Source: an uncultured Rhizobiaceae bacterium (GTDB lineage Bacteria; Pseudomonadota; Alphaproteobacteria; Rhizobiales; Rhizobiaceae). From it: 64,000 nucleotides of DNA. The position numbers were made by a program, and so were the translations under genes. This document shows positions 17,572 through 54,441 of the stretch, in pieces. The stretch lies in assembly GCA_964244725.1 (NCBI GenBank), contig CAXTJQ010000010.1, positions 42,695-106,694 on the forward strand, given 5' to 3'. Each line of letters opens with the position of its first letter. Position 1 is the first letter of the stretch. Under the pieces are notes generated by a model, which was not told where the DNA came from, searched no databases, and worked only from the letters and a program-made list of their open reading frames with translations.

Positions 17572-18798
17572 ATGAGCGTAGGCGATGACGCCCCGCCCGT
17601 CGCCACGCGAGCCGGCGGCTCGCCTTTCGAGGTGTTCCGCGTTTTCCTCAAACTCGGCTTGACCTCTTTCGGCGGCCCCATCGCCCATCTCGGCTATTTC
17701 CGGGACGAGTTGGTGGTGCGGCGCGGCTGGATCGACGATGCCGGCTATGCGGATCTTGTAGCGCTTTGCCAGTTCCTGCCGGGGCCGGCCTCGAGCCAGG
17801 TCGGGTTCTCGCTTGGGCTCCTGCGCGGCAATGGTCTCCTGGGCGGCCTGGCGGCCTGGTTCGCATTCACCATGCCGTCGGCGATCATCCTGTTCGCCTT
17901 CGCGCTCGGCGCCTCCGCCTTCGGCGGCCCGTCCGCGGAGGGACTTCTGCATGGCTTGAAACTTGTTGCCGTCGCCGTCGTCGCGCAGGCGATCTGGGGT
18001 ATGGCGAAAAGTCTGACGCCGGATCGCGAGCGGGCGGGCATCGCGCTCGCGGCCGTCGCCGTCGTCGTGTTTGTTGGCGGATCCTTCGGCCAGATCGCCG
18101 CGATCGCGCTCGGCGCCTTCGCAGGACTTTGGTTATGCCGAATGGACGCCCCCGCGCCCATCTGCGCGCATGGCTTTCCGGTGTCGCGCCGGGGCGGCGT
18201 CATCGCCTTCGCATTGTTCGCGGCCCTGTTCCTGATCGCTCCGCTCATGGCGAGCGCGACAGGTCGGCAGGCGCTCGCGTTGTTCGACGCCTTCTACCGC
18301 TCGGGCGCACTGGTCTTCGGGGGAGGGCATGTCGTGCTGCCCTTGCTGCAGGCGCAGGTCGTGGCGCCCGGATGGACCTCGAACGAATCCTTCCTGGCGG
18401 GCTACGGGTTTGCGCAGGCGGTTCCGGGACCGCTCTTCACCTTCTCCGCCTATCTCGGCGCGGTCATGGAGCCGAAGCCCAATGGCATCGCTGGGTCGGC
18501 TATCGCGCTCGTCGCCGTTTTCCTGCCGGGCCTGCTGCTCGTCTATGGCGCGCTGCCTTTCCGCGACGCGCTGCGGGCGAAACCGGCGGCGCGGGCCGCG
18601 ATGCGCGGGGCGAATGCCGCCGTTGTCGGCCTCCTCGGCGGCGCGTTCTACAGCCCGGTCTGGACGAGCGCCGTCCTCTCGCCGCCGGACTTCGCGCTCG
18701 CACTGGCCGGATTCCTGCTGCTCACGGTCTGGAAGGCGCCGCCTTGGACCGTCGTCCTGCTGTTGGCCGCGAGCGGCGTGTTGCGTCGGTTCATTTGA
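17572..18798 (+). CDS. chrA: Chromate efflux transporter (CHR family)
   Basis: FLKLGLTSFGGPIAHLGYF, CQFLPGPASSQVG, VFGGGHVVLPLL and AQAVPGPLF motifs; two homologous halves. Confidence 0.93.
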   Translation: MSVGDDAPPVATRAGGSPFEVFRVFLKLGLTSFGGPIAHLGYFRDELVVRRGWIDDAGYADLVALCQFLPGPASSQVGFSLGLLRGNGLLGGLAAWFAFTMPSAIILFAFALGASAFGGPSAEGLLHGLKLVAVAVVAQAIWGMAKSLTPDRERAGIALAAVAVVVFVGGSFGQIAAIALGAFAGLWLCRMDAPAPICAHGFPVSRRGGVIAFALFAALFLIAPLMASATGRQALALFDAFYRSGALVFGGGHVVLPLLQAQVVAPGWTSNESFLAGYGFAQAVPGPLFTFSAYLGAVMEPKPNGIAGSAIALVAVFLPGLLLVYGALPFRDALRAKPAARAAMRGANAAVVGLLGGAFYSPVWTSAVLSPPDFALALAGFLLLTVWKAPPWTVVLLLAASGVLRRFI

Positions 18799-18918
18799 GA
18801 TCGTTGTCGATTTCAATGGACGCCGGCATCCGACCTGCGCGGCGGGCTGGGTCGTCGACGAAGCCGGACTGAGCTGAGTCTACGGAATCGCAAAGAACAC
18901 GAAGAGCCTCTGGCGATG

Positions 18919-19185
18919 TCAGCTTCGGCCCTGCCGACGCGGGACCGAGGCGCGGTTCTCGCTTACCAGCCGATAGATCTTGGCCACTTCGCTCAGCAGG
19001 CCGAGCCTTATGAGTTCGCCCAGGGCCTCGGCCTGATCGGAAATCCCATGGGCGGCTCTCCAGCCTTCCGCCGCCGCCATCTGCTCGTAGTTCAGCGTGA
19101 CGAGAACACGATACCGGCGCTTCGATCGCTGCTCCCGGTCCTTTTCCTCGGCCGGATGATCCTCGGGTAGTTCGCCAATTGCCAC
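18919..19185 (-). CDS. Small hypothetical protein, possible ribbon-helix-helix DNA-binding protein
   Basis: Probable GTG start at 19185 after GGGGGG; RVLVTLNYEQMAAAEGWRAAHGISDQAEALGELIRLGL fits a strand-helix-helix pattern; fold assignment is by eye. Confidence 0.55.
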   Translation of the reverse strand: MAIGELPEDHPAEEKDREQRSKRRYRVLVTLNYEQMAAAEGWRAAHGISDQAEALGELIRLGLLSEVAKIYRLVSENRASVPRRQGRS

Positions 19186-19347
19186 GGCGCAGCCCCCCTG
19201 TGATGCGGGTGGACTTTTTCGCGTCCTCGCCCGCATTTTGTTTCCTCAAATGCAAGCTATCGGCAAAACCATCAGGCGGGCTATTTCGGATAATCCGCTA
19301 CGTAGTATATACTTATGATCGACATCCGCATCGACGCATCCCTGGTC

Positions 19348-19965
19348 TTATTTCATCATCTTGATGAGGTCGGCGAGGCTGCGGGCTTCAAGCTTCTCGC
19401 GGATTCGCGCGCGATGAATTTCGATGGTGCGCTGGCTGATCCCGAGTTGTTCGGCGATGTGCTTGTTCGTCATGCCCAGGACGAGATGGTCGAGGACTTC
19501 CTTTTCGCGTCCCGTCAGGCGCACCAGCCGCTCGGAACCGATTCGCTGGGCCAGCGTCGGCGTATCGAGGGCCGCGAGGCGGTTGGTCGCGGCGTCGATC
19601 GCGCCGAGCAACCGCGATTCGGATGCCGGCTTCTCGATGAAATCGATGGCGCCCCGCTTCATCGCCTCCACCGCGAGCGGCACGTCGCCATGCGCCGTCA
19701 GGATGATGACGGGAACGTCGATGCCTCTTTCGGAGAGAATCCGCTGCAGCTCCATGCCGTCGATGCCCGGCATGCGCAGATCGACGAATGCGCAAAGCGC
19801 CCGGTCCGGGTCGATACGGTCGAGGAAGGCGTCGGCCGTGGCCGCCGCGACGACATCGAACTTGTGGGCTGCGAGCAGGGCGCACAGCGATGTCCGGACC
19901 GACTCGTCGTCGTCGACGACATGGATGCGCGTATGTCTTGCCGCATCAGGACCCACGATTGCCAT
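19348..19965 (-). CDS. FixJ-type response regulator (REC + LuxR HTH)
   Basis: HVVDDD, VDLRMPGIDG (phospho-Asp), ILTAHGDVPLAVEAMKRGAIDFIEKP and LTGREKEVL..NKHIAEQLGISQRTIEIHRARI; start overlaps the phytochrome stop. Confidence 0.93.
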   Translation of the reverse strand: MAIVGPDAARHTRIHVVDDDESVRTSLCALLAAHKFDVVAAATADAFLDRIDPDRALCAFVDLRMPGIDGMELQRILSERGIDVPVIILTAHGDVPLAVEAMKRGAIDFIEKPASESRLLGAIDAATNRLAALDTPTLAQRIGSERLVRLTGREKEVLDHLVLGMTNKHIAEQLGISQRTIEIHRARIREKLEARSLADLIKMMK

Positions 19966-22231
19966 CGATCCTGAGGGTAAAGACGAATTCGGTTTCGGGA
20001 CCGGCGCGCGCCGAGATCTTGCCGCCATGCGCTTCCACGATCGAGCGGCACAGCGACAGGCCGATGCCCATGCCGTTCGTGGTCGAGTTGTGGAACGGCT
20101 CGAAGAGCTTCGGCAACATCTCGGCCGCGATTCCAATTCCGGTATCCCTGATGGTGATCCTCGCCATCGGCCCCCCCCGACGCGTCGAGACCGTCAGCAC
20201 GCGGCGTTCTCGGCCCTGCATCGCGCTCAGGCTGTTGCGGACGAGATTGAGGATGACTTGGCCGACCTGCACCGGATCCGCCAGGATTTCGGGCATGTCC
20301 GGCTCCATGTCGAAGACGATGTCGCACCGTTCCCCGTCGCGGGCGACCAGCGCGAGCTCCACCCCCTGGCGGATGACGGCGTGCAGGTCGATCCGTTCCA
20401 GGGCGATCTCGCCCTGTCCGATGAAATCGCGCAGCCGCCTGACGAGATCGGCGGCCCGCGACGATTCCGACACCGCGCTGTCCATCAGCCTGTCCACCTG
20501 GACGGGTATGGCGAGGCCGTAGTTCCTGAGCTCCTGGCGGCAGGCGTTGACGTAGTTTGTGACCGCCGATAGCGGCTGGTTGAGCTCGTGGGCCAACGCG
20601 GACGCAAGTTCGCCCAGCGCACGGTTGCGGGCGGCATCGAGCAGGATGAGCCGCAGGCGTGCCTCTTCCGCCTCGGCCGCCATCTTCGCGGCGACCGCTC
20701 CGCGCTCGCGGTCGAGGCTGTTCATGGCGAACAGCGCGCGCCGTGTGATGCGCAGCATCTCGTGATCCGTCGCGGTGAAGGGTTCGCTGCGGCCACGCCG
20801 TTCCTCGCTCCACAACGCGAAGGATCCGCGCGGCGACAGGCGGCTCGATCCGTCCTGCAGTCGCCTGACCGCCTTGTCCGGTTTGCCGGCCCATCGAATG
20901 GTTTGCTCGAAGGATTCGCGAAACAGGACGAGCCAGTCACGCCCGTCATCCGAAAGCTCCATCATCGCCGCCCCCGACACCTCGTTCATGATGGCGGGAT
21001 TCGCGCCGTCTTGCCCCGGCAGCCGATCGGATGTGGCGATTCCATCGACGAGTTCATCGCTAAGCGAAAGATAGGTTTCGGGGAATACGGGGGTCGAACC
21101 GACTTCGAATGCGATGCCGTCCAGCATCATCACAAGCCCTTGCGCATTGCATTGGTCCATCAGGATGTCGGCGTGGTCGCGCACGACGTTGCGCAACGGT
21201 TTGCCCATGCGCGCCTCGCGCTCGATCTCGAAGGCGGTCTTTTCGGCGCGGATGCTGTGGCGAAGCTTGATCGTGTTCTCAAGACTCTGCAACAGCGCCG
21301 AGATCGTGCCGCCGATCAACTCGCAGAACCGGAGTGTGCTCCACGACAGGTGCAGTGGCGCATAGTGGTGGCAGGCCACCAGGCCCCACAATTCTCGGTT
21401 CGACGTAAGCGAGATCGATAGGCTGGCGCCCACGCCCATGTTGTTCAGATACTCGACATGCACGGGCGCCACGGCGCGCAGTTTCGAATAGGTCAGGTCG
21501 AGCGGGTTCGCCGAGGCCGCGTCGGCGACCGTTCCCGAGCGCGCCATGATCGGCACGGGCAACGCGTTAATGTCCGGAATGATGCGGATGACGTTGAGCA
21601 GGAAGTGCCGCCGTGCGGGATCGGGAATGTCGGACGCTGGATAGTGGAGGCCAAGGAAGCTGTCCGCGCGCACGGTGCTTTCGGCGATGACTTCGCCATG
21701 CTTGTCCTTGGCGAAGCGATAGATCATCACCCGGTCGAAGCCGGTGACCTCGCGGATGATCTGCGCGCCTATTTGCGCCAGTCCGGTCAGCGTTTCGGGC
21801 TGGATCAGTTCGGAAATGACGCGCTGGCGCAGAAGATCGGTTTCCCAGGTGACTGCCGGGCCGCGTTCGATGGCGACGAACTCCAGGACGATCCGCCCAT
21901 CATACGCATGCGGATAGCATTCGAAGTCGGCCTCGGCCTCGCCTGCTCCCTCGAACGACAGAAACCAGGGCCGCAAAAGATCCGGCATCGTCGGCAGCAG
22001 GTTGCGCGAACGCAACGCCGTGCAATTGGCGTCGCCGACGAGCCACGCGAGCGGTCGGCCGAGCAGATCGGCGCATCCGTGCCCGAACAGATCCTTCGTA
22101 TTGCCGCTCGCGAACTCGACCGTCAGGGTCGACTGATCGACCGCGATGAGCACGCCGGTCGGCTGAATCGCGCCGATCTGATGAATGGGCTCCGTGTCGC
22201 ACGACGTGAGGTCGATGATGCGCTTCAGCAC
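19946..22231 (-). CDS. bphP: Bacteriophytochrome histidine kinase (PAS-GAF-PHY-HisKA-HATPase)
   Basis: DLTSCDTEPIH (N-terminal bilin-binding Cys), TGFDRVMIYRF, YPASDIP, HVEYLNNMG, WGLVACHH, PRGSF; kinase LAHELNQPL, QVILNLVRN, DTGIG, GMGIGL; GTG start overlapping the bphO stop. Confidence 0.93.
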   Translation of the reverse strand: MLKRIIDLTSCDTEPIHQIGAIQPTGVLIAVDQSTLTVEFASGNTKDLFGHGCADLLGRPLAWLVGDANCTALRSRNLLPTMPDLLRPWFLSFEGAGEAEADFECYPHAYDGRIVLEFVAIERGPAVTWETDLLRQRVISELIQPETLTGLAQIGAQIIREVTGFDRVMIYRFAKDKHGEVIAESTVRADSFLGLHYPASDIPDPARRHFLLNVIRIIPDINALPVPIMARSGTVADAASANPLDLTYSKLRAVAPVHVEYLNNMGVGASLSISLTSNRELWGLVACHHYAPLHLSWSTLRFCELIGGTISALLQSLENTIKLRHSIRAEKTAFEIEREARMGKPLRNVVRDHADILMDQCNAQGLVMMLDGIAFEVGSTPVFPETYLSLSDELVDGIATSDRLPGQDGANPAIMNEVSGAAMMELSDDGRDWLVLFRESFEQTIRWAGKPDKAVRRLQDGSSRLSPRGSFALWSEERRGRSEPFTATDHEMLRITRRALFAMNSLDRERGAVAAKMAAEAEEARLRLILLDAARNRALGELASALAHELNQPLSAVTNYVNACRQELRNYGLAIPVQVDRLMDSAVSESSRAADLVRRLRDFIGQGEIALERIDLHAVIRQGVELALVARDGERCDIVFDMEPDMPEILADPVQVGQVILNLVRNSLSAMQGRERRVLTVSTRRGGPMARITIRDTGIGIAAEMLPKLFEPFHNSTTNGMGIGLSLCRSIVEAHGGKISARAGPETEFVFTLRIDGNRGS

Positions 22232-22878
22232 CGGCCCGGGCTCATGTCCCAGGAGGGGTCGCGCCATATGGCCAGCCAGTCCGCGAAGCTGACGAAAGCC
22301 GCCTGCGCGCCGGCGATCATATCCTGTTTTTCCGCTTCGGTCGCCGCGATCCTGTCGAGCATGGCGCAGGTCATGGCCCAGCGCCCGGCGCCCGCTTCGC
22401 GGCACCACCGCCAGTAACCACTGCCCGAAGCATCGTGCTTTTCGAGCAGCGACTCAACGGCGCGGCAGAGGACGCCGCCCCCGAGCATCGAGCCTTCGAA
22501 GACGTAAAGCATGCCACCCAACGTTCCGGCCGTATCGATCGGGGGCAATGCCGCAAGATTTGCAGCGCGGATCGGCGGTACGCCGAGTGCGGCCAGATCC
22601 TTTGCGAGAATTGACGTTCGCGGCGCATAGGCAAAACCTAACCGATTGAGGGCGTATCGCTCGCAGCTTTGCGCGAGCAACCGGTCGTGCCGGGCGTAGA
22701 AGCCATGGAACAGGATCATCAGCCGTTGATATCCACCGACATCGAGCGTCCCGTTCATTAGGGCCGCGAAGGCCGGATGGGCGTCGAGTGATTCGTGTTC
22801 GGGCCGGGTCGCGCGGCGAAGTTCGAAACGGAACGCCTCCGGCTTCGGCCGTTGCTCGATCTGGTCCTGCGCCATCAT
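22225..22878 (-). CDS. bphO: Biliverdin-producing heme oxygenase (BphO-like)
   Basis: LRRATRPEHESLD (proximal His) and LYVFEGSMLGG motifs; directly upstream of the phytochrome. Confidence 0.85.
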   Translation of the reverse strand: MMAQDQIEQRPKPEAFRFELRRATRPEHESLDAHPAFAALMNGTLDVGGYQRLMILFHGFYARHDRLLAQSCERYALNRLGFAYAPRTSILAKDLAALGVPPIRAANLAALPPIDTAGTLGGMLYVFEGSMLGGGVLCRAVESLLEKHDASGSGYWRWCREAGAGRWAMTCAMLDRIAATEAEKQDMIAGAQAAFVSFADWLAIWRDPSWDMSPGRC

Positions 22879-23041
22879 CCCCCTGCCGGCGCCTTGCCTG
22901 CCGCACCGCACCGACTCCCGTTCATGCGATGCTGCAAGTGTAGCGTCATTGTTGCAGACAGCAACGCGACATTGGACGAAACCGATGGGAATGCGCGGTT
23001 CGCGCGAACGATCGGATCTTCTGTTTTTTCCGGCTCGGCGT

Positions 23042-24238
23042 TCAACGGCGCTCGTCGTCGCGCCGCTCCAGCCCATAGGGCTTCACCAGGGCCCAAACGT
23101 GATCGGGCGCCATGTTTCGCACCCGGCGCGGGTGCTCGCGTCGCAGGTGCAGCACGGTCTCCACCGCCTTCATCTCGACGCGGGCGCGCGCGAATTCGAG
23201 CCCGCGCGGACCTATGCGCGGCATCAGCCAGCCGACGATCGGCCTGAGCCAGTCGGGCATGGAGCGGAGGGGGAGGCCGCCGGCCGCGCGCGCGACATTG
23301 GCGAGGAAGCCTTTCACCGGCCCCGCGCGCTTTCCGGCGCTGCCGGGCGCGGAAACACGCGCCTCGTCGCCCAGCAGGGCGAGCAACTCCTCGCCGCGCT
23401 CGTTGCGCACCAGCAGCCATTGCTCCCCCTGTCCCCCCATGTAACCGACTGTTATGTCGGCTAGAACGTTGGTGTAGTCGACGCAGGTCCGGCAGGTCAG
23501 CGGGAAAAAATCGGGCGGCAGTTTCGAGATCGGCAATTTGAGGAACGGGATGATGCGGGTCCGGCCGTCGCTGAATCGCAGTTCAACGTGGAAGTCGGCG
23601 CGGAACTCCAGATAGACGATTGTCTCAGGGTCGTCGTCCAGCAGGTCGAGAAAGTCATGGAAGCGCTCGGTGGTGGTGTTGTCGGAGCAGGGCGTCCCGA
23701 TGACGTAGAGCCGATCGAATCCATACTCTCGTTCGAGCGCTCGCAGGGCATGGACCTGGCAGGGAATGCCAATGACCGCCAGACGCTTGAAACCACGCTG
23801 ACGGGCCGGCTCCAGCAGCGCCAGCAGTGGCGCGTAGCCCATGCGCATGCCGCGGCACGCGGCCATGCCTTCAGGCTTCGTCACGATGACCGGCATCGGC
23901 TTCCATTTGTCGGCGGGATCCGGCGCCATGGTCAGCACCGCGTCGACCATGCCGGTCTCCAGCAGCCGCTCGGCGATGCGGGTCGTGATTCCGGTCCACT
24001 GCGCGCCCGCCATCGGCGTCTTCAGCGATGCGCGAACCATGCGCCGGAACGGCCCGAAATGCATCTCGTCGGGCCGCGCCGGATCGCGCGCGCGGCCATG
24101 CGCCTGTTTCTCGAGACCGTCATAGTCGGGCTTGATGAACTGGCAGGCGCGCCCGCAAGCCTTGGGGTCGGCGGTGCGGGAAATGCCGCAATCGGTGCAT
24201 AGATCGCGCGCGACGGCCGGCGCCAGGAGCGGCGCCAT
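23042..24238 (-). CDS. bciB: Ferredoxin-dependent 8-vinyl (divinyl-chlorophyllide) reductase, F420-hydrogenase beta family
   Basis: LCTDCG..CGRACQFI, GAQWTGI, IGIPCQV, GTPCSDN, YLEFRAD and CRTCVDYTN motifs; located at the edge of the photosynthesis cluster; the start could be a few codons upstream. Confidence 0.85.
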   Translation of the reverse strand: MAPLLAPAVARDLCTDCGISRTADPKACGRACQFIKPDYDGLEKQAHGRARDPARPDEMHFGPFRRMVRASLKTPMAGAQWTGITTRIAERLLETGMVDAVLTMAPDPADKWKPMPVIVTKPEGMAACRGMRMGYAPLLALLEPARQRGFKRLAVIGIPCQVHALRALEREYGFDRLYVIGTPCSDNTTTERFHDFLDLLDDDPETIVYLEFRADFHVELRFSDGRTRIIPFLKLPISKLPPDFFPLTCRTCVDYTNVLADITVGYMGGQGEQWLLVRNERGEELLALLGDEARVSAPGSAGKRAGPVKGFLANVARAAGGLPLRSMPDWLRPIVGWLMPRIGPRGLEFARARVEMKAVETVLHLRREHPRRVRNMAPDHVWALVKPYGLERRDDERR

Positions 24239-24400
24239 GATCGAATCCGAATGATTCAAGTGGACCGTCACGCCCGGCGACCCTTTACCGATAGTCAACG
24301 ATACGACACGCTGTAAACTGTCAGTTGCGATGGAAAACGACAACCGAATTCTTGGACCGCTCAAGGCCGTCGGCTTGACGGCGGTTCGGGGCGAAACGAC

Positions 24401-25909
24401 TTGATTCGATGGCTGATTCTCGTTGTCGCGTGCTTGGCGGCGGCATTCGGACTGTTCAGGCTGGTTTCGGCCGCCTCGGGCCTGAAGGTGTCGCATGCCA
24501 AATTACAGGGCACGCCGGTTACGGTCTTCAGCGCAGGGGGCGAACCCGCGCCGGTCGTGGTGATCGCGCATGGTTTTGCCGGATCGCAGCAGTTCATGCA
24601 GCCCTTCGCCATCACGCTGGCGCGCAGCGGCTACCTCGTCGCCACCTACGACCTGCTCGGTCACGGCCGCAATCCCGCGCCGCTCGGCGGTGACGTGACC
24701 AAGGTCGAAGGCGCGACCGCCAACCTCGTCGCCCAACTCGACCGCGTCGCGACATTCGCGCGTGGTCTGCCGCGCTCGGACGGGCGGCTTGCCGTGCTCG
24801 GGCATTCGATGGCGACGGACATCATCGTGCGCTACGCGACCGCGCACCCCGAGGTTGCCGCCACTGTGGCGGTGTCGATGTTCTCGCCGGCAGTCACCGC
24901 GACCACGCCGAGGAACCTGCTGGTCGTCGTCGGCGCGCTGGAGACCGGACTCCGCGCCGAGGGGCTCAGGGCGCTGGCGCTTTCGGCCGGCGCGGACGCC
25001 CGCGAGGACGAGACCTACGGCAACGCGGCCGACGGAACCGCGCGGCGTGTCGCGATCTCACCCTCCGTAGAGCATATCGGCGTGCTCTACAGCGGCAAGA
25101 GCCTGGCGGAATCGCGCGACTGGCTCAATCTCATATTCGGACGCACCGTCTCCGGCCTGCCGGAAACGCGGGGCCTGTCGCTGCTTCTGTTCTTTGCGGG
25201 CGTGGTCGTGATCGCGCGCTTCGCCAGCCGCTTTCTGCCGCGCGCGGCGACCCGGCCCATCGGCATCGCGGCGCCATGGCGAACGCTCGTGTTTCTTGGA
25301 TTGGCGCCGGCGCTCGCTACGCCCTTGCTTCTCTGGAAGGCGCCGACCGATTTCCTGCCGGTTCCAGTCGGCGATTACCTCGCCGCGCATTTTCTCGTCT
25401 ACGGCGTGGTGACCGGTATGGGCTTGCTCATCTTCGGGCGTCGGACCGGAATGGGCCCTTCTGGCCTGCACTGGGGCAGGGCGCTCGCCGGCATCGTCGC
25501 GGCGACGCTGTTTTGCCTTCTGGTCATCTTTCTGCCGATCGACCGTTTCGTCACCTCCTTCGTGCCCAATGCGCTACGCCTGCCGCTGATCATCGCGATG
25601 CTGGCCGGGCTTTTGCCTTATTTCCTCGCCGACGAATGTCTGACGCGCGGCGCGAAGGCTCCGCGCGGCGCCTATCTCTTCACCAAGCTTTGCTTCCTTC
25701 TTTCGCTCGCCATCGCCGTCGCGCTGAATTTCGAAAAGCTCTTCTTCCTGCTCATCGTCGTGCCCGTCATCCTGGTCTTCTTTATCGTCTTCGGGCTGGC
25801 CAGTTCATGGATTTACCGACGCACCTGGCATCCGGTCGTCGGCGCGGTCACCAATGCGATCCTGTTCGCATGGGCCATTGCCGTGACGTTTCCGGTGCTC
25901 GCATCGTGA
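24401..25909 (+). CDS. Alpha/beta hydrolase with a C-terminal multi-pass membrane domain
   Basis: N-terminal signal/anchor; AHGFAGS oxyanion motif; LGHSMA nucleophile elbow; several hydrophobic helices in the C-terminal half; TTG start. Confidence 0.8.
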   Translation: MIRWLILVVACLAAAFGLFRLVSAASGLKVSHAKLQGTPVTVFSAGGEPAPVVVIAHGFAGSQQFMQPFAITLARSGYLVATYDLLGHGRNPAPLGGDVTKVEGATANLVAQLDRVATFARGLPRSDGRLAVLGHSMATDIIVRYATAHPEVAATVAVSMFSPAVTATTPRNLLVVVGALETGLRAEGLRALALSAGADAREDETYGNAADGTARRVAISPSVEHIGVLYSGKSLAESRDWLNLIFGRTVSGLPETRGLSLLLFFAGVVVIARFASRFLPRAATRPIGIAAPWRTLVFLGLAPALATPLLLWKAPTDFLPVPVGDYLAAHFLVYGVVTGMGLLIFGRRTGMGPSGLHWGRALAGIVAATLFCLLVIFLPIDRFVTSFVPNALRLPLIIAMLAGLLPYFLADECLTRGAKAPRGAYLFTKLCFLLSLAIAVALNFEKLFFLLIVVPVILVFFIVFGLASSWIYRRTWHPVVGAVTNAILFAWAIAVTFPVLAS

Positions 25910-29491: not shown

Positions 29492-29535
29492 TGTAAACAA
29501 ACCTTTACACAGCAATGTGTCAATGTCGATTGATT
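29492..29535. promoter_or_regulatory. Tandem PpsR/CrtJ operator upstream of dxs
   Basis: Perfect box TGTAAACAAACCTTTACA (29492-29509), an 8-bp gap, then a degenerate box TGTCAATGTCGATTGATT (29518-29535). Confidence 0.8.
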
Positions 29536-39159: not shown

Positions 39160-40586
39160 TTGATCGGCGTCCGCGCCCCCGGCCGCTGGAACGACGCCGC
39201 CCATCCGTGCGAGGCCCGTCCGTAGAGCGCTCCCCCCGATCCCGGGAACAGCCTCGCGAAGTCCGAGGGCGTCGTCGTTCGGCGCTGCCCGGTCGGCGCC
39301 GAGAGGCTGAGCCCGGCGCGAGCCAGGCGTTCCTTCACCCGTGTCTCGCATGTCGCGATCTCCGCTTGGCTCAGGGGTCTGTCGTCGGCGCGCGCCGGGG
39401 CGTTGACCAGCAGCAGCAGCCGCTCGTCGCCGTCGGGCGCGACGCCTGCGACCGAGGCGTCGCGGTCCTGCGCGCAGACATAGATCGTCGGATCGGCGGG
39501 CAGAGTTCGTTCGCGGAAGATGTCGGCGAATTCGCGGGCGTAGTCGGCCGAGAAAAACACGGAATGGCGCGAGAGCGGAAAGCCCTCGGCCTTGCCCCTG
39601 ATCGACCAGGTCAGCGCCGACAGCGAACGCTCCTTCGGCTTCCAGGGCGCGGCGGCCGGCCGCGCGGCCTCGCCGAGCAGGCCGGAAAACAGCGCCGCCG
39701 GATCGCCGTTGAAGACGACCGCGTCGGCCTCGACCGTCTCGCCCGACGCCAGCCTCACGCCCTGCGCGACGCCGTCCCTGACGATGATCTCGGCGATTTC
39801 CGCGCCGTAGGAGAAGGCCACGCCGCGCACCCTTGCCAGCGCTTCCAGCGCCTCCGCGATGCGCATCATGCCGCCCTCGACCAGCCAGACGCCGGTCTGC
39901 TCGACATGCGCGATCAGCATCAGGGGCCCCGGCGCCTCGAACGGCGACGACCCGCAATAGGTCGCGTAGCGCCCGAAGAGCTGGCGCAGGCGCGGATCGC
40001 GGAAATACCCTTCGATCACCTTGCCCAGCGCCGTGAACGGCTTGATCCGCGCCAGCGCGACGAGGCCGCTCAGTCCGGCGTTGCGGGCAAGCCCGATCGG
40101 GCTCGGCGACGGGTTCTCCATGAAGGAGGCGTTCAGCGACTGGAAAACCTCTTCCGTGCGCTGGCAGAAGTCGAGATAGCCCCTGGCTTCCTTCGCGCCG
40201 GCGAGTCGCCCCACGGCGTCGGCGGATGCCGCCCGGTCGGCATGGAGGTCGAAGGTCGAGCCGTCCTCCCAGGAATGGCGCGCAAGGATGTCAGCGCGGA
40301 CGAGCCTGACGTGGTCGTCGACCGATGCGCCCACCGCCGCGAAGATCGCGTCGAACACCCAGCGCATGGTGAAGACGGTCGGGCCGGAATCGACGCCGCG
40401 CCCGCCGACCACGACCTCGCGAAGCTTCCCGCCGGGCCGGTCGTTCTTCTCGAGAACGGTGACGGCATGGCCCTGGGCGCCCAGCAGGAGCCCAGCGACG
40501 AGCCCGCCCATCCCGGCGCCGACGACGACCACACGGCGTCGGGCGGGGGAGCGGGATTTGCCTTGAGTGTCAACTTTGATAAACAT
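38979..40586 (-). CDS. crtD: Carotenoid 3,4-desaturase
   Basis: VVVGAGMGGL, DSGPTVFTMRWVF, QLFGRYATYCGSSP and HPGPGIPMAALSG. Confidence 0.94.
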   Translation of the reverse strand: MFIKVDTQGKSRSPARRRVVVVGAGMGGLVAGLLLGAQGHAVTVLEKNDRPGGKLREVVVGGRGVDSGPTVFTMRWVFDAIFAAVGASVDDHVRLVRADILARHSWEDGSTFDLHADRAASADAVGRLAGAKEARGYLDFCQRTEEVFQSLNASFMENPSPSPIGLARNAGLSGLVALARIKPFTALGKVIEGYFRDPRLRQLFGRYATYCGSSPFEAPGPLMLIAHVEQTGVWLVEGGMMRIAEALEALARVRGVAFSYGAEIAEIIVRDGVAQGVRLASGETVEADAVVFNGDPAALFSGLLGEAARPAAAPWKPKERSLSALTWSIRGKAEGFPLSRHSVFFSADYAREFADIFRERTLPADPTIYVCAQDRDASVAGVAPDGDERLLLLVNAPARADDRPLSQAEIATCETRVKERLARAGLSLSAPTGQRRTTTPSDFARLFPGSGGALYGRASHGWAASFQRPGARTPIKWLYMAGGAVHPGPGIPMAALSGRHAAQAVAADLASTATLHKAATPGGTSTRSAKTPTMH

Positions 40587-52301: not shown

Positions 52302-53516
52302 TCAGGCGACCGCGCGCGCGATCGCGCAGCGCGACCACAATTCGCCCAGCGCATCGATCAGGTGATCGATATCGGCGTCGGTATGCAGCGGCGAGGGCGT
52401 GATGCGCAGCCGCTCCGTCTTGCGCGGCACGGTCGGGTAGTTGATCGGCTGCACGTAGATGCCGTAATGATCGAGCAGCAGATCGCTGATCCATTTGCAT
52501 TTTGCCGCGTCGCCGACCATGACCGGGACGATATGGCTCGGATTGGGCATATAGGGGATGCCGAGCCGTTCCAGCCGAGAGCGCACCTTGCGCACCCGAT
52601 CCTGGTGGCGGGCGCGCTCGAACGGGCTGTTCTTCAGGTGCCGGATCGACGCGAGCGCGCCGGCCGCGATCGCCGGCGGCAGCGCCGTCGTGAAGATGAA
52701 TCCGCTGGCGAAGGATCGAATGAAATCGCACAGCGCGGCCGAGCCCGTGATGTAGCCTCCGACGACGCCGAACGCCTTGCCGAGCGTGCCCTCGATAAGG
52801 GTGACGCGGTCCATCAGGCCTTCGCGCTCGGCCACGCCGCCGCCGCCCGGGCCGTAGAGGCCGACGCCGTGGACTTCGTCCAGATAGGTCATGGCCCCGT
52901 GTTTCTCGGCGACATCGAGGATCTCGCGGATCGGAGCGATGTCCCCGTCCATCGAATAGACGCTCTCGAAGGCGACGAGCTTGGGTACGTCAGCGCCGTA
53001 TTCCGACAGCATTCGATCGAGATCCTTCGGATCATTGTGTCTCCAGAGGCGCTTTTCCGCGCGGGAATGGCGGATGCCCTCGATCATCGAGGCGTGGTTG
53101 CCCTCGTCCGAGAAGATCACGCAGCCGGGGATGTTGGCGCCCAGCGTCGACAGCGTCGCCCAGTTGGATACATAGCCGGAGGTGAACAGCAGCGCCGCTT
53201 CCTTGTGGTGCAGGTCGGCCAGCTCGCGCTCGAGCAGCACGTGGTAGTGGTTGGTGCCGGAAATGTTTCGCGTGCCGCCCGCGCCGGCGCCGCATTTGTC
53301 GAGCGCCTCGTGCATAGCCGCGATCACCTTCGGATGCTGGCCCATCCCGAGATAGTCGTTGGAGCACCAGACGGTCACGTCGCTCGTGCCGCCGTCGCTG
53401 TAGCGCGTGGCGCGCGGGAACGATCCGGACTGGCGCTCGAGTTCGGCGAAGATCCTGTAGCGGCCTTCCTTGTGGAGGCCGTCGAGCTTCGTGGCGAAAT
53501 GGGCTTCGAAGTTCAT
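52302..53516 (-). CDS. hemA: 5-aminolevulinate synthase
   Basis: [40 protein letters not shown] (PLP Lys) and VQPINYPTV. Confidence 0.97.
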
Positions 53517-53565
53517 GGGTATTCCCCCTGCCATTGACTTCCGGCTCGGCCGGTCGTTTGCGCCT

Positions 53566-54441
53566 TCACGCGGTCGATCGATGCGCCGAACGCAGGTTTG
53601 CGATCGGCGCGGGCGAGTAGTGTTTGATGTGGTCGTGCTTGTGATCGTGGTCGCGACGCAGCGCGTCCGGCGCGGGGGTGGGGACCTCGCGTGATTTCAT
53701 GCTCCAGTTCCACATGGCTTCGGCCGGCACCGGCAGGACCAGGAACCAGTGTTCCAGAATCGCCAGTGTCAGCATGGTCGACAGGAAGGTGAAGCCGGCC
53801 TGGCGGAACGGATCGGCGGCGATCACCGCCTCGGTCGCCAGCACCGCGCAAATGACCGTCGAGATCGTCACCGAAAACGGAAAGAGAAGGTTCATCGGCT
53901 TGTTGTTGAGGAAACTCTTGAGATAGGCGAGGTGGGGCGGCAGGAAATGCGCATTGAGGTTGCGCACGCCAAGGAACACGTTGAGCCGCGCGCTTTCGTG
54001 CATCCACCACAGGATCACGAAGGTCCACAAGCCGATCTCGTTGGCCCCGCCCCAGGTCAGCGCGGCGACGACGGCGAACGACGCCAGGATCGCCAGCTCG
54101 TGCCAGAGGCTGACCTGCACCGCATGGCCGAAATGCGCCCAGCCCGAGCAGCCGTCCTCGCAGGCGTGATTGCGTGGTCCGGTGACATAGCCCATGTAGA
54201 AACTGATCTCGTGCCAGGCCCAGGCCGCCAGCGCCGACGCGAAGGCGACATAGGCGCCCTGCACCGTGGTGTCGCCGCTCGATGCGAAAAGCCCGTAGAA
54301 GGCGGCGCCGAGCAGGACGGTCGCGCCGATCATGCTCCACTTGAACGTCCTGACCGGCAGCCCGTCCAGATAGATGATCGCCCCGGTGGAGAACCACCAG
54401 GTGAAGAGCGCGAACAGGATCGGACAGAGATAGGCTGCCAC
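53566..54441 (-). CDS. puhE: Photosynthetic complex assembly protein PuhE
   Basis: [38 protein letters not shown]; position after acsF. Confidence 0.9.

Follow-up and report, generated by a model that had tools for sequence, protein, structure and literature searches.

Which genes would a light signal reach through a bacteriophytochrome encoded beside a photosynthesis gene cluster? The question is raised by a 64,000-nt stretch of DNA (contig CAXTJQ010000010.1, called the window here) from an uncultured Rhizobiaceae bacterium, in which a heme oxygenase gene (bphO), a bacteriophytochrome kinase gene (bphP) and the gene for a DNA-binding response regulator follow one another at the edge of such a cluster. 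An earlier reading of this DNA, the original prediction, had described the three genes as a FixLJ-like system whose regulator may control the adjacent cluster. Our analysis points to a different output. We think it probable, on balance, that the locus is a four-gene light-signaling module, made up of bphO, bphP, the regulator gene and a small, separately promoted gene behind them, which would operate through the steps proposed below.

The phytochrome, its kinase core and its partner

All four genes lie on the minus strand. The first, bphO (22225-22878), encodes a 217-aa heme oxygenase (Pfam Heme_oxygenase PF01126, 47.8 bits, E 1.9e-12), and it is followed by bphP, at 19946-22267 if read from an ATG (773 aa) or 19946-22231 if read from a GTG (761 aa). 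The regulator gene occupies 19348-19965 (ATG) or 19348-19956 (GTG), and the small gene 18919-19236 (ATG, 105 aa) or 18919-19185 (GTG, 88 aa). Position 18919, the left end of the range covered by the original prediction, is the stop codon of this fourth, small open reading frame (ORF), which is absent from that prediction. The claim that bphO, bphP and the regulator gene overlap successively was borne out when the sequence itself was read. Between bphO and bphP the overlap is 7 nt (GTGCTGA) with the GTG start of bphP, or 43 nt with the ATG start, and the regulator gene begins within the end of bphP, sharing 11 nt (GTG 19956) or 20 nt (ATG 19965) with it. For bphP, the GTG at 22231 is more likely to be the start than the ATG at 22267, and it gives the 761-aa product that is called in the public protein collection (P0004). 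Overlaps of 7-8 nt recur in Mesorhizobium loti, including the 7-nt overlap of bphO and bphP.

BphP has the Pfam architecture PAS_2-GAF-PHY-HisKA-HATPase_c. Its sensor domains scored 55.9 (PAS_2), 45.9 (GAF) and 89.4 (PHY) bits, all above cut-off, and the NCBIfam BphP model, matched over positions 8-364, covers the sensor part of the protein only. The chromophore and tongue motifs were complete, namely SCDTEPIH (Cys23), ASDIP at 211, PVHVEYL at 268, ACHHY at 298, WAGKP at 459 and PRGSF at 479, and the Cys of the biliverdin site is nearly invariant across the family. With all domains and motifs found and a heme oxygenase gene adjacent, the predicted intact PAS-GAF-PHY input stands. The heme-binding PAS domain of FixL was not found in BphP, the N-terminal part of which is PAS_2-GAF-PHY.

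The transmitter half of BphP has its H-box, LGELASALAHELNQPL, at residues 551-566, and N, G1, F and G2 boxes are also present. For residues 538-765 the best NCBIfam model was FixL. The match covers model positions 249-479 of 485 at 178.7 bits; it takes in the kinase core only and falls short of the equivalog cut-off of 850 bits. When the kinase core was compared with solved structures, it scored 159 bits with the B. japonicum FixL kinase in YF1 (4gcz), about 50 bits with most solved full-length phytochrome kinases, and 69 bits with one 746-aa chain of unidentified type. Among the best 150 representatives of 50%-identity clusters, 15 had an H-box of the form AHE[LIV]NQPL, and the others were of the classical SHDLxEPLR or SHELRTPL type. 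In a maximum-likelihood tree built from DHp/CA cores, the FixL-type phytochromes and BjFixL made up one clade (100/95) and the classical SHDLxEPLR phytochrome kinases a separate one (99/99). The kinase did not group with ordinary BphP kinases, the placement that the original prediction had named as speaking against it. As the NCBIfam profile, the PDB match and the tree place it, the kinase core is of the FixL type, as had been predicted, and not that of an ordinary phytochrome kinase.

The regulator carries Response_reg (91.2 bits) and GerE/LuxR (68.7 bits) domains in Pfam, and the acidic pocket (D18/D19), D62, T90 and K112 are present (read from P0003). Its best NCBIfam model was FixJ, at 211 bits, and its best PDB match was BjFixJ (5xso, 150 bits), with StyR next. 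The recognition helix, ISQRTIEIHRARI, resembles that of FixJ, ISPRTIEVYRANV. The FixJ-like character that the original prediction gave to the REC-LuxR partner is upheld by both scores. Because 211 bits lies below the equivalog cut-off of 255, homology makes the regulator a member of the FixJ family and not a true FixJ.

The host assembly (3.89 Mb in 29 contigs, 95.6% complete) encodes a single PHY domain, that of bphP. In a phmmer search of the six-frame ORFs of the genome, the regulator itself scored 425 bits and its runner-up 65, and the runner-up to the kinase reached 69 bits; neither a further FixJ-like regulator nor a further FixL-like kinase was found. Since there is one PHY domain and no second regulator or kinase of these kinds, bphP and the regulator gene are the genome's only phytochrome and only FixLJ-class pair.

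Full-length homologues are numerous in the public collection, at 56-83% identity. A scan of species-representative genomes gave 23 related loci (designated by L numbers) at 50% identity or more, the synteny of which was followed by tblastn. They take in Kaistia, Aquibium, Chelativorans, Rhodobium orientis, Anderseniella, Roseovarius, Ruegeria, Planktotalea, Thermohalobaculum, 'Gammaproteobacteria' and other metagenome-assembled genomes (MAGs), and the module was found in cultured Mesorhizobium loti, Aquibium microcysteis, Rhodobium orientis and Roseovarius conchicola. A regulator homologue (49-77% identity) lay directly 3' of bphP in all 22 complete loci, a bphO homologue lay 5' of bphP in 14 of the 23, and photosynthesis-cluster markers lay within 10 kb of the module in 15 of the 23. 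Judged by this synteny, the bphP-regulator unit is not rare; it is a conserved feature of many Hyphomicrobiales, Rhodobacterales and gammaproteobacterial MAGs.

At 36-41% identity there are more distant clusters of FixL-type phytochromes, which as a rule also have a REC-GerE regulator gene 3' of them; in two of these clusters single-domain receivers take its place. The distant clusters are located away from photosynthesis clusters. The plasmid collection held classical phytochromes only, at 29-32% identity. In P0133 (Litoreibacter roseus), P0139/L086 and P0141/L087, the N-terminal Cys motif was altered (for example, CARDPIEIPG) or the PAS_2 match was missing, and the REC-GerE partner was kept. 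These proteins may be analogues of chromophore-less redox-sensing phytochromes.

A conserved element and the gene behind it

Comparison of the intergenic regions behind the regulator gene brought out a conserved cis-element, which in the window is TAAGTATATACTACGTAGCGGATTATCCGAAATAG (19281-19315, read on the minus strand from 19315 to 19281) and begins 33 nt past the regulator stop codon. Its layout is TAAGTA-TATAC-TACGTAG-CGGATTATCCG-AAATAG, with box 1 at 19310-19315, box 2 at 19298-19304 and a CGGAT-T-ATCCG palindrome at 19287-19297. Across loci the composite reads TA(A/C)GTA, a 4-5-nt spacer, TACGTAG(C/T)GG, a short A/T-rich spacer and CCGAAATAG. About 20 related loci have the element just 3' of the regulator gene. 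In nearly every one it stood 23-44 nt past the regulator stop, whichever gene comes next; in Rhodobium orientis the distance was 287 nt. By eye, variants could be made out in Aquibium (GTACGTAGTTTTCCCGTAGGCGTTTTTCC) and in L086, a 37%-identity cluster with a related element.

We built a position weight matrix (PWM) of the element from 13 loci. On loci outside the training set it scored 41.7 (L090, M. loti), 24.1 (L039), 21.1 (L012) and 14.4 (L006). Across 532 kb of related loci, scores above 20 occurred solely just after the regulator gene, and the 3.9-Mb host genome gave a single match, at 42.5, with the next best at 17.2.

The element resembles published FixJ sites, which comprise the classes GTAMGTAG and GTAGTTTCCC from systematic evolution of ligands by exponential enrichment and the S. 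meliloti fixK site TAAGTAATTTCCCTTA (PMC4999443). The regulator is the one DNA-binding protein whose gene stands beside the element in every locus, including loci that lack the small gene, which makes it the candidate binder. Binding of the element by the regulator is the most economical assignment, and we treat the element as a predicted site; the gene behind it would therefore be the conserved direct target of the regulator.

In the window that gene is the small ORF, the C-terminal core of which is conserved 3' of the regulator gene in 15 of the 21 loci that extend that far. The core reads RVLVTL-EQMAAAEGWRAAH-SDQAEALGELIRLGLLSEVAKIYRLV, and the consensus of the family is RxxVxL..E..AAVEGWR.AN..S..EA.RELVRLGLLSEI..Y.LV, with W59 and R60 invariant. 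An 88-aa product from GTG 19185 is more likely than a 105-aa product from ATG 19236, because the GTG and its strong Shine-Dalgarno sequence are conserved in the closest loci and close relatives are called at 86-88 aa. In the locus of a Kaistia MAG (L005:12990-13060), a conserved GGAAAC-N-AATGCGG upstream of the small gene is out of frame with the core, which argues against translation of an N-terminal extension from ATG 19236.

A profile search among 5.8 billion proteins gave 241 relatives of the small protein, all annotated 'hypothetical', one of which has a precomputed RHH_1 domain (PF01402). Of the 40 family matches on contigs longer than 10 kb, at least 25 lie on a contig of the same length as one with a phytochrome match. 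The gene order in M. loti and Aquibium microcysteis is a divergent ppsR-like gene, bphP, the regulator gene and the small gene, with bphO before bphP in M. loti only. An AlphaFold2 model of the small protein has a strand at residues 43-46 and helices at 50-62 and 68-97, with a core pLDDT of 88-97. The top Foldseek matches included NikR, ArtA, ParD and the TCP domain, with MazE and VapB antitoxins also among the matches; root-mean-square deviations were 1.7-2.5 Å over about 40 residues (NikR, ArtA, TCP) and 3.4 Å (ParD), and all matches were weak, with E values of at least 1.3. On the strength of this model, the fold is tentatively ribbon-helix-helix (RHH)-like.

Two 40%-identity clusters outside photosynthesis clusters have a small protein of another kind after the regulator, degenerate-receiver-like and not RHH-like (L084:9171-9611 and L085:9232-9621). 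TACGTA-type boxes are still visible in their intergenic regions.

The mechanism that we propose runs from sensor to small gene. BphO, as its family membership suggests, would supply the biliverdin chromophore. A Pr/Pfr change in the PAS-GAF-PHY module would then set the kinase/phosphatase balance of the FixL-type DHp/CA core with its HELNQ motif, as chimeras of DrBphP and FixL support, and the phosphoryl group would pass to the translationally coupled FixJ-family regulator, to which the gene coupling points, as does the fact that the genome holds no other FixL/FixJ-like partner. The phosphorylated regulator would bind the TAAGTA-N5-TACGTAG element and control the promoter of the small gene, a step suggested by the conservation of the element, its uniqueness in the genome and its likeness to FixJ sites. 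The small protein would be the output, probably feeding the PpsR/AerR circuit over the photosynthesis cluster. The first of these steps draw on strong homology and the regulator-to-site step on comparison among loci, while the last, the weakest, is one that we infer.

What the regulator would control

The original prediction had placed the module at the edge of the photosynthesis cluster, and the cluster does start immediately upstream of bphO. Together with the DNA-binding output domain of the regulator and the same edge position in about 15 of the 23 related loci, this would suit direct binding of the phosphorylated regulator to the photosynthesis promoters and activation of the adjacent cluster, in the manner of FixJ with fixK and nifA. 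However, the genome-wide PWM scan found no copies of the element at the puf, puh, bch or crt promoters, and its one match is the copy before the small gene. The cluster promoters carry PpsR boxes instead: canonical TGT-N12-ACA tandem boxes occur at 40568/40594 and 42715/42741, at the crtD/crtE divergent and bchC promoters, and a single box occurs at 29492 (dxs-hemE). The distant relatives of the kinase/regulator pair, moreover, lie outside photosynthesis clusters. Direct control of the cluster seems unlikely to us, and we do not retain that part of the original prediction. Because the only strong genomic site precedes the small gene and none stands at a photosynthesis promoter, the regulator most likely controls one adjacent promoter, and its control of the cluster, if any, would be indirect.

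Phytochrome kinases with a DNA-binding partner are already known from the control of light-harvesting complex 2 (LH2). RpBphP4-Rpa1489 of R. palustris and BphP3B-TF of Bradyrhizobium sp. BTAi1 are each said to combine a bacteriophytochrome kinase with a two-component transcription factor, to adjoin pucBA and to control LH2. The control of the neighboring pucBA by BBta_3080 of BTAi1 is documented (PMC3899966). An orthologue of either pair, controlling antenna genes, would share with our module the layout reported for them, a BphP kinase gene and then a gene for a two-component REC-HTH regulator, as well as phosphorylation to a DNA-binding regulator and a purple phototroph as host. The present genome, in contrast, lacks LH2. 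We found no pucBA anywhere in it, the LHC family (PF00556) matching only pufBA (LH1), and there was no copy of the element near pufBA and no puc gene beside the module in 22 related loci. No pucBA neighbor was found in seven distant FixL-type phytochrome clusters, and no protein named as from R. palustris or Bradyrhizobium was among the homologues or cluster members listed. The systems, compared by description only, differ also in that the candidate target here is the small RHH-like gene (AerR-like in the Roseobacter group) and that this module lies at a photosynthesis-cluster edge, with a ppsR-like neighbor in most relatives. We regard such an orthology as improbable.

That the element is the operator of the small RHH-like protein, or of PpsR, and not of the regulator, we consider quite improbable: it is common for RHH proteins to regulate themselves by way of promoter repeats, and the element holds a CGGA-N3-TCCG palindrome besides its TACGTA boxes, but the element is present in six Roseobacter-type loci without the RHH gene, a related element is found in L086 without one, the sequence does not fit the TGT-N12-ACA of PpsR, and the regulator is the one DNA-binding protein that is encoded next to it throughout. 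The RHH and regulator assignments are compatible, as the palindrome could be a second site.

For the module with the small gene as its target, a link to the PpsR/AerR circuit is suggested by the exchange of the small gene for an AerR/PpaA-like gene in the Roseobacter group, by ppsR-like neighbors and by a PpsR box 5' of bphO in relatives. In six Roseobacter-group loci (L010, L011, L014, L016, L017 and L024), there is no small gene, and an AerR/PpaA-like gene with a B12-binding domain stands behind the same element; it takes the place of the small RHH-like gene at 13077-13994 in L016 and at 13100-13999 in L017. A ppsR-like gene is convergent to the AerR/PpaA-like gene in L017 and L024. For the second ORF behind the L016 B12 gene, an identity as PpsR was considered and rejected; the ORF had no family match and no match in the host genome.

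In 14 loci a ppsR-like gene (PAS + HTH_8) directly adjoins bphO or bphP on the upstream side, in divergent orientation, and in others one lies nearby. It sits between the bciB-like gene and bphO at L004:7706-9100, L005:7730-9253, L009:7719-9125 and L090:2640-4214. When we compared the sequences 5' of bphO in the window, L004, L005, L009, L090 and L025, a perfect PpsR box, TGTAACAATGGCGTTACA (TGT-N12-ACA), was conserved in L004, L009, L090 and L025. The single PpsR of the host genome and an AerR-like gene are located about 4-6 kb past the end of the window.

As a tentative proposal, possible but less than probable, the module, the element and the small protein may form an undescribed and widely conserved red/far-red route into the PpsR/AerR circuit of phototrophic Proteobacteria. 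A single promoter would be switched, and the small protein, as a new family of regulator, would modulate PpsR-dependent repression of the photosynthesis cluster, with the AerR/PpaA-like B12 protein as its substitute in the Roseobacter group.

Several points weigh against the module as we draw it. The window has no adjacent ppsR-like gene, the bciB-like gene and bphO being separated by a gap of 163 nt (22879-23041), and the PpsR-type box 5' of bphO, TGCAACAATGACGCTACA (22939-22956, minus strand), is degenerate (TGC...ACA) when set beside those of its relatives. Because of the missing neighbor and the degenerate box, the PpsR link may be weaker in this window. FixJ sites have no firm consensus (PMC4999443), and the assignment of regulator to site is drawn from co-localization and motif resemblance. 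A promoter scan found no sigma-70 consensus at the element, and terminator-like matches were at chance level; the missing sigma-70 promoter would suit an activator-dependent one, though it is no evidence for it. Sequence and profile searches of Pfam, NCBIfam and PDB gave no match to the small protein of the window, and it may bind protein and not DNA, since its strongest conservation falls on EGWR and LGLLSE, which are not typical DNA-contact positions. Every step of the mechanism, finally, is a prediction drawn from sequence.

The flanks of the module differ. On the higher-coordinate side is the photosynthesis cluster, with a bciB-like FrhB gene, an alpha/beta hydrolase gene, tspO, dxs, hemE, bchI/D/O and crtI/B/D/E/F, and further with bchCXYZ, pufLM, puhE, acsF, puhA, lhaA, bchL and bchH; a gene of the class I/II aminotransferase fold within it (52302-53696) is taken to be like that for ALA-synthase (hemA). 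With acsF in its cluster, the host may be the aerobic phototroph that the original prediction supposed. The FrhB/FdhB-family gene (23042-24496, minus strand) probably encodes a BciB-type 8-vinyl reductase and adjoins the alpha/beta hydrolase gene (24401-25909, plus strand), and the pair is conserved beside the module in L004, L005, L009, L039 and M. loti (L090). The lower-coordinate flank is unrelated and holds a chromate transporter, HxlR, an OYE-family gene, AraC and an ABC sugar transporter. An Rfam scan of 18700-23200 found no RNA family.

Relation to known systems and significance

The module shares with the FixL-FixJ systems of rhizobia a DHp/CA core with the H-box AHELNQPL, a REC-LuxR regulator and a FixJ-like candidate site. 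It differs in having a biliverdin-type PAS_2-GAF-PHY input and no heme-PAS, in that both proteins fall below the NCBIfam cut-offs, and in lacking a fixK or nifA target.

BphP1, which is not known to have a histidine kinase output, acts directly on PpsR2. The BphP1-PpsR2 systems of Bradyrhizobium ORS278 and R. palustris (PMC3899966) resemble our locus in that phytochrome and heme oxygenase genes lie in or next to the photosynthesis cluster, and most relatives of the module have a ppsR-like neighbor. Unlike them, the module has a complete kinase and a cognate DNA-binding regulator, and in the window the adjacent ppsR-like gene is absent.

The same domain logic, a phytochrome sensor driving a FixL-type kinase/phosphatase and a FixJ-type regulator, has been engineered. 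A chimera of the D. radiodurans BphP sensor and the B. japonicum FixL kinase, together with FixJ, is regulated by red light (DrF1/pREDusk and pDERusk; PMC9594775 and bioRxiv 10.1101/2025.05.05.652137). Whereas those systems are synthetic, the module in the window is natural, with its own linker, its own target promoter and an extra downstream gene.

Four features, all in a genome without LH2, appear to be undescribed in the searchable literature, namely a transmitter pair of the FixL/FixJ class in a cluster-linked module, the conserved FixJ-like element, the small output gene and the linkage to ppsR/AerR. To our knowledge, the light switching of photosynthesis genes in aerobic and facultative bacteriochlorophyll phototrophs is understood in a few models only, namely AppA/PpsR, AerR/CrtJ, BphP1/PpsR2 and LdaP of Dinoroseobacter. 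The module offers a concrete, testable red/far-red pathway with a single sensor and a single regulator, a single candidate DNA site and a single small output gene. As a natural counterpart of the synthetic phytochrome-FixL/FixJ optogenetic switches, it has a native linker and promoter that could inform the design of such tools.

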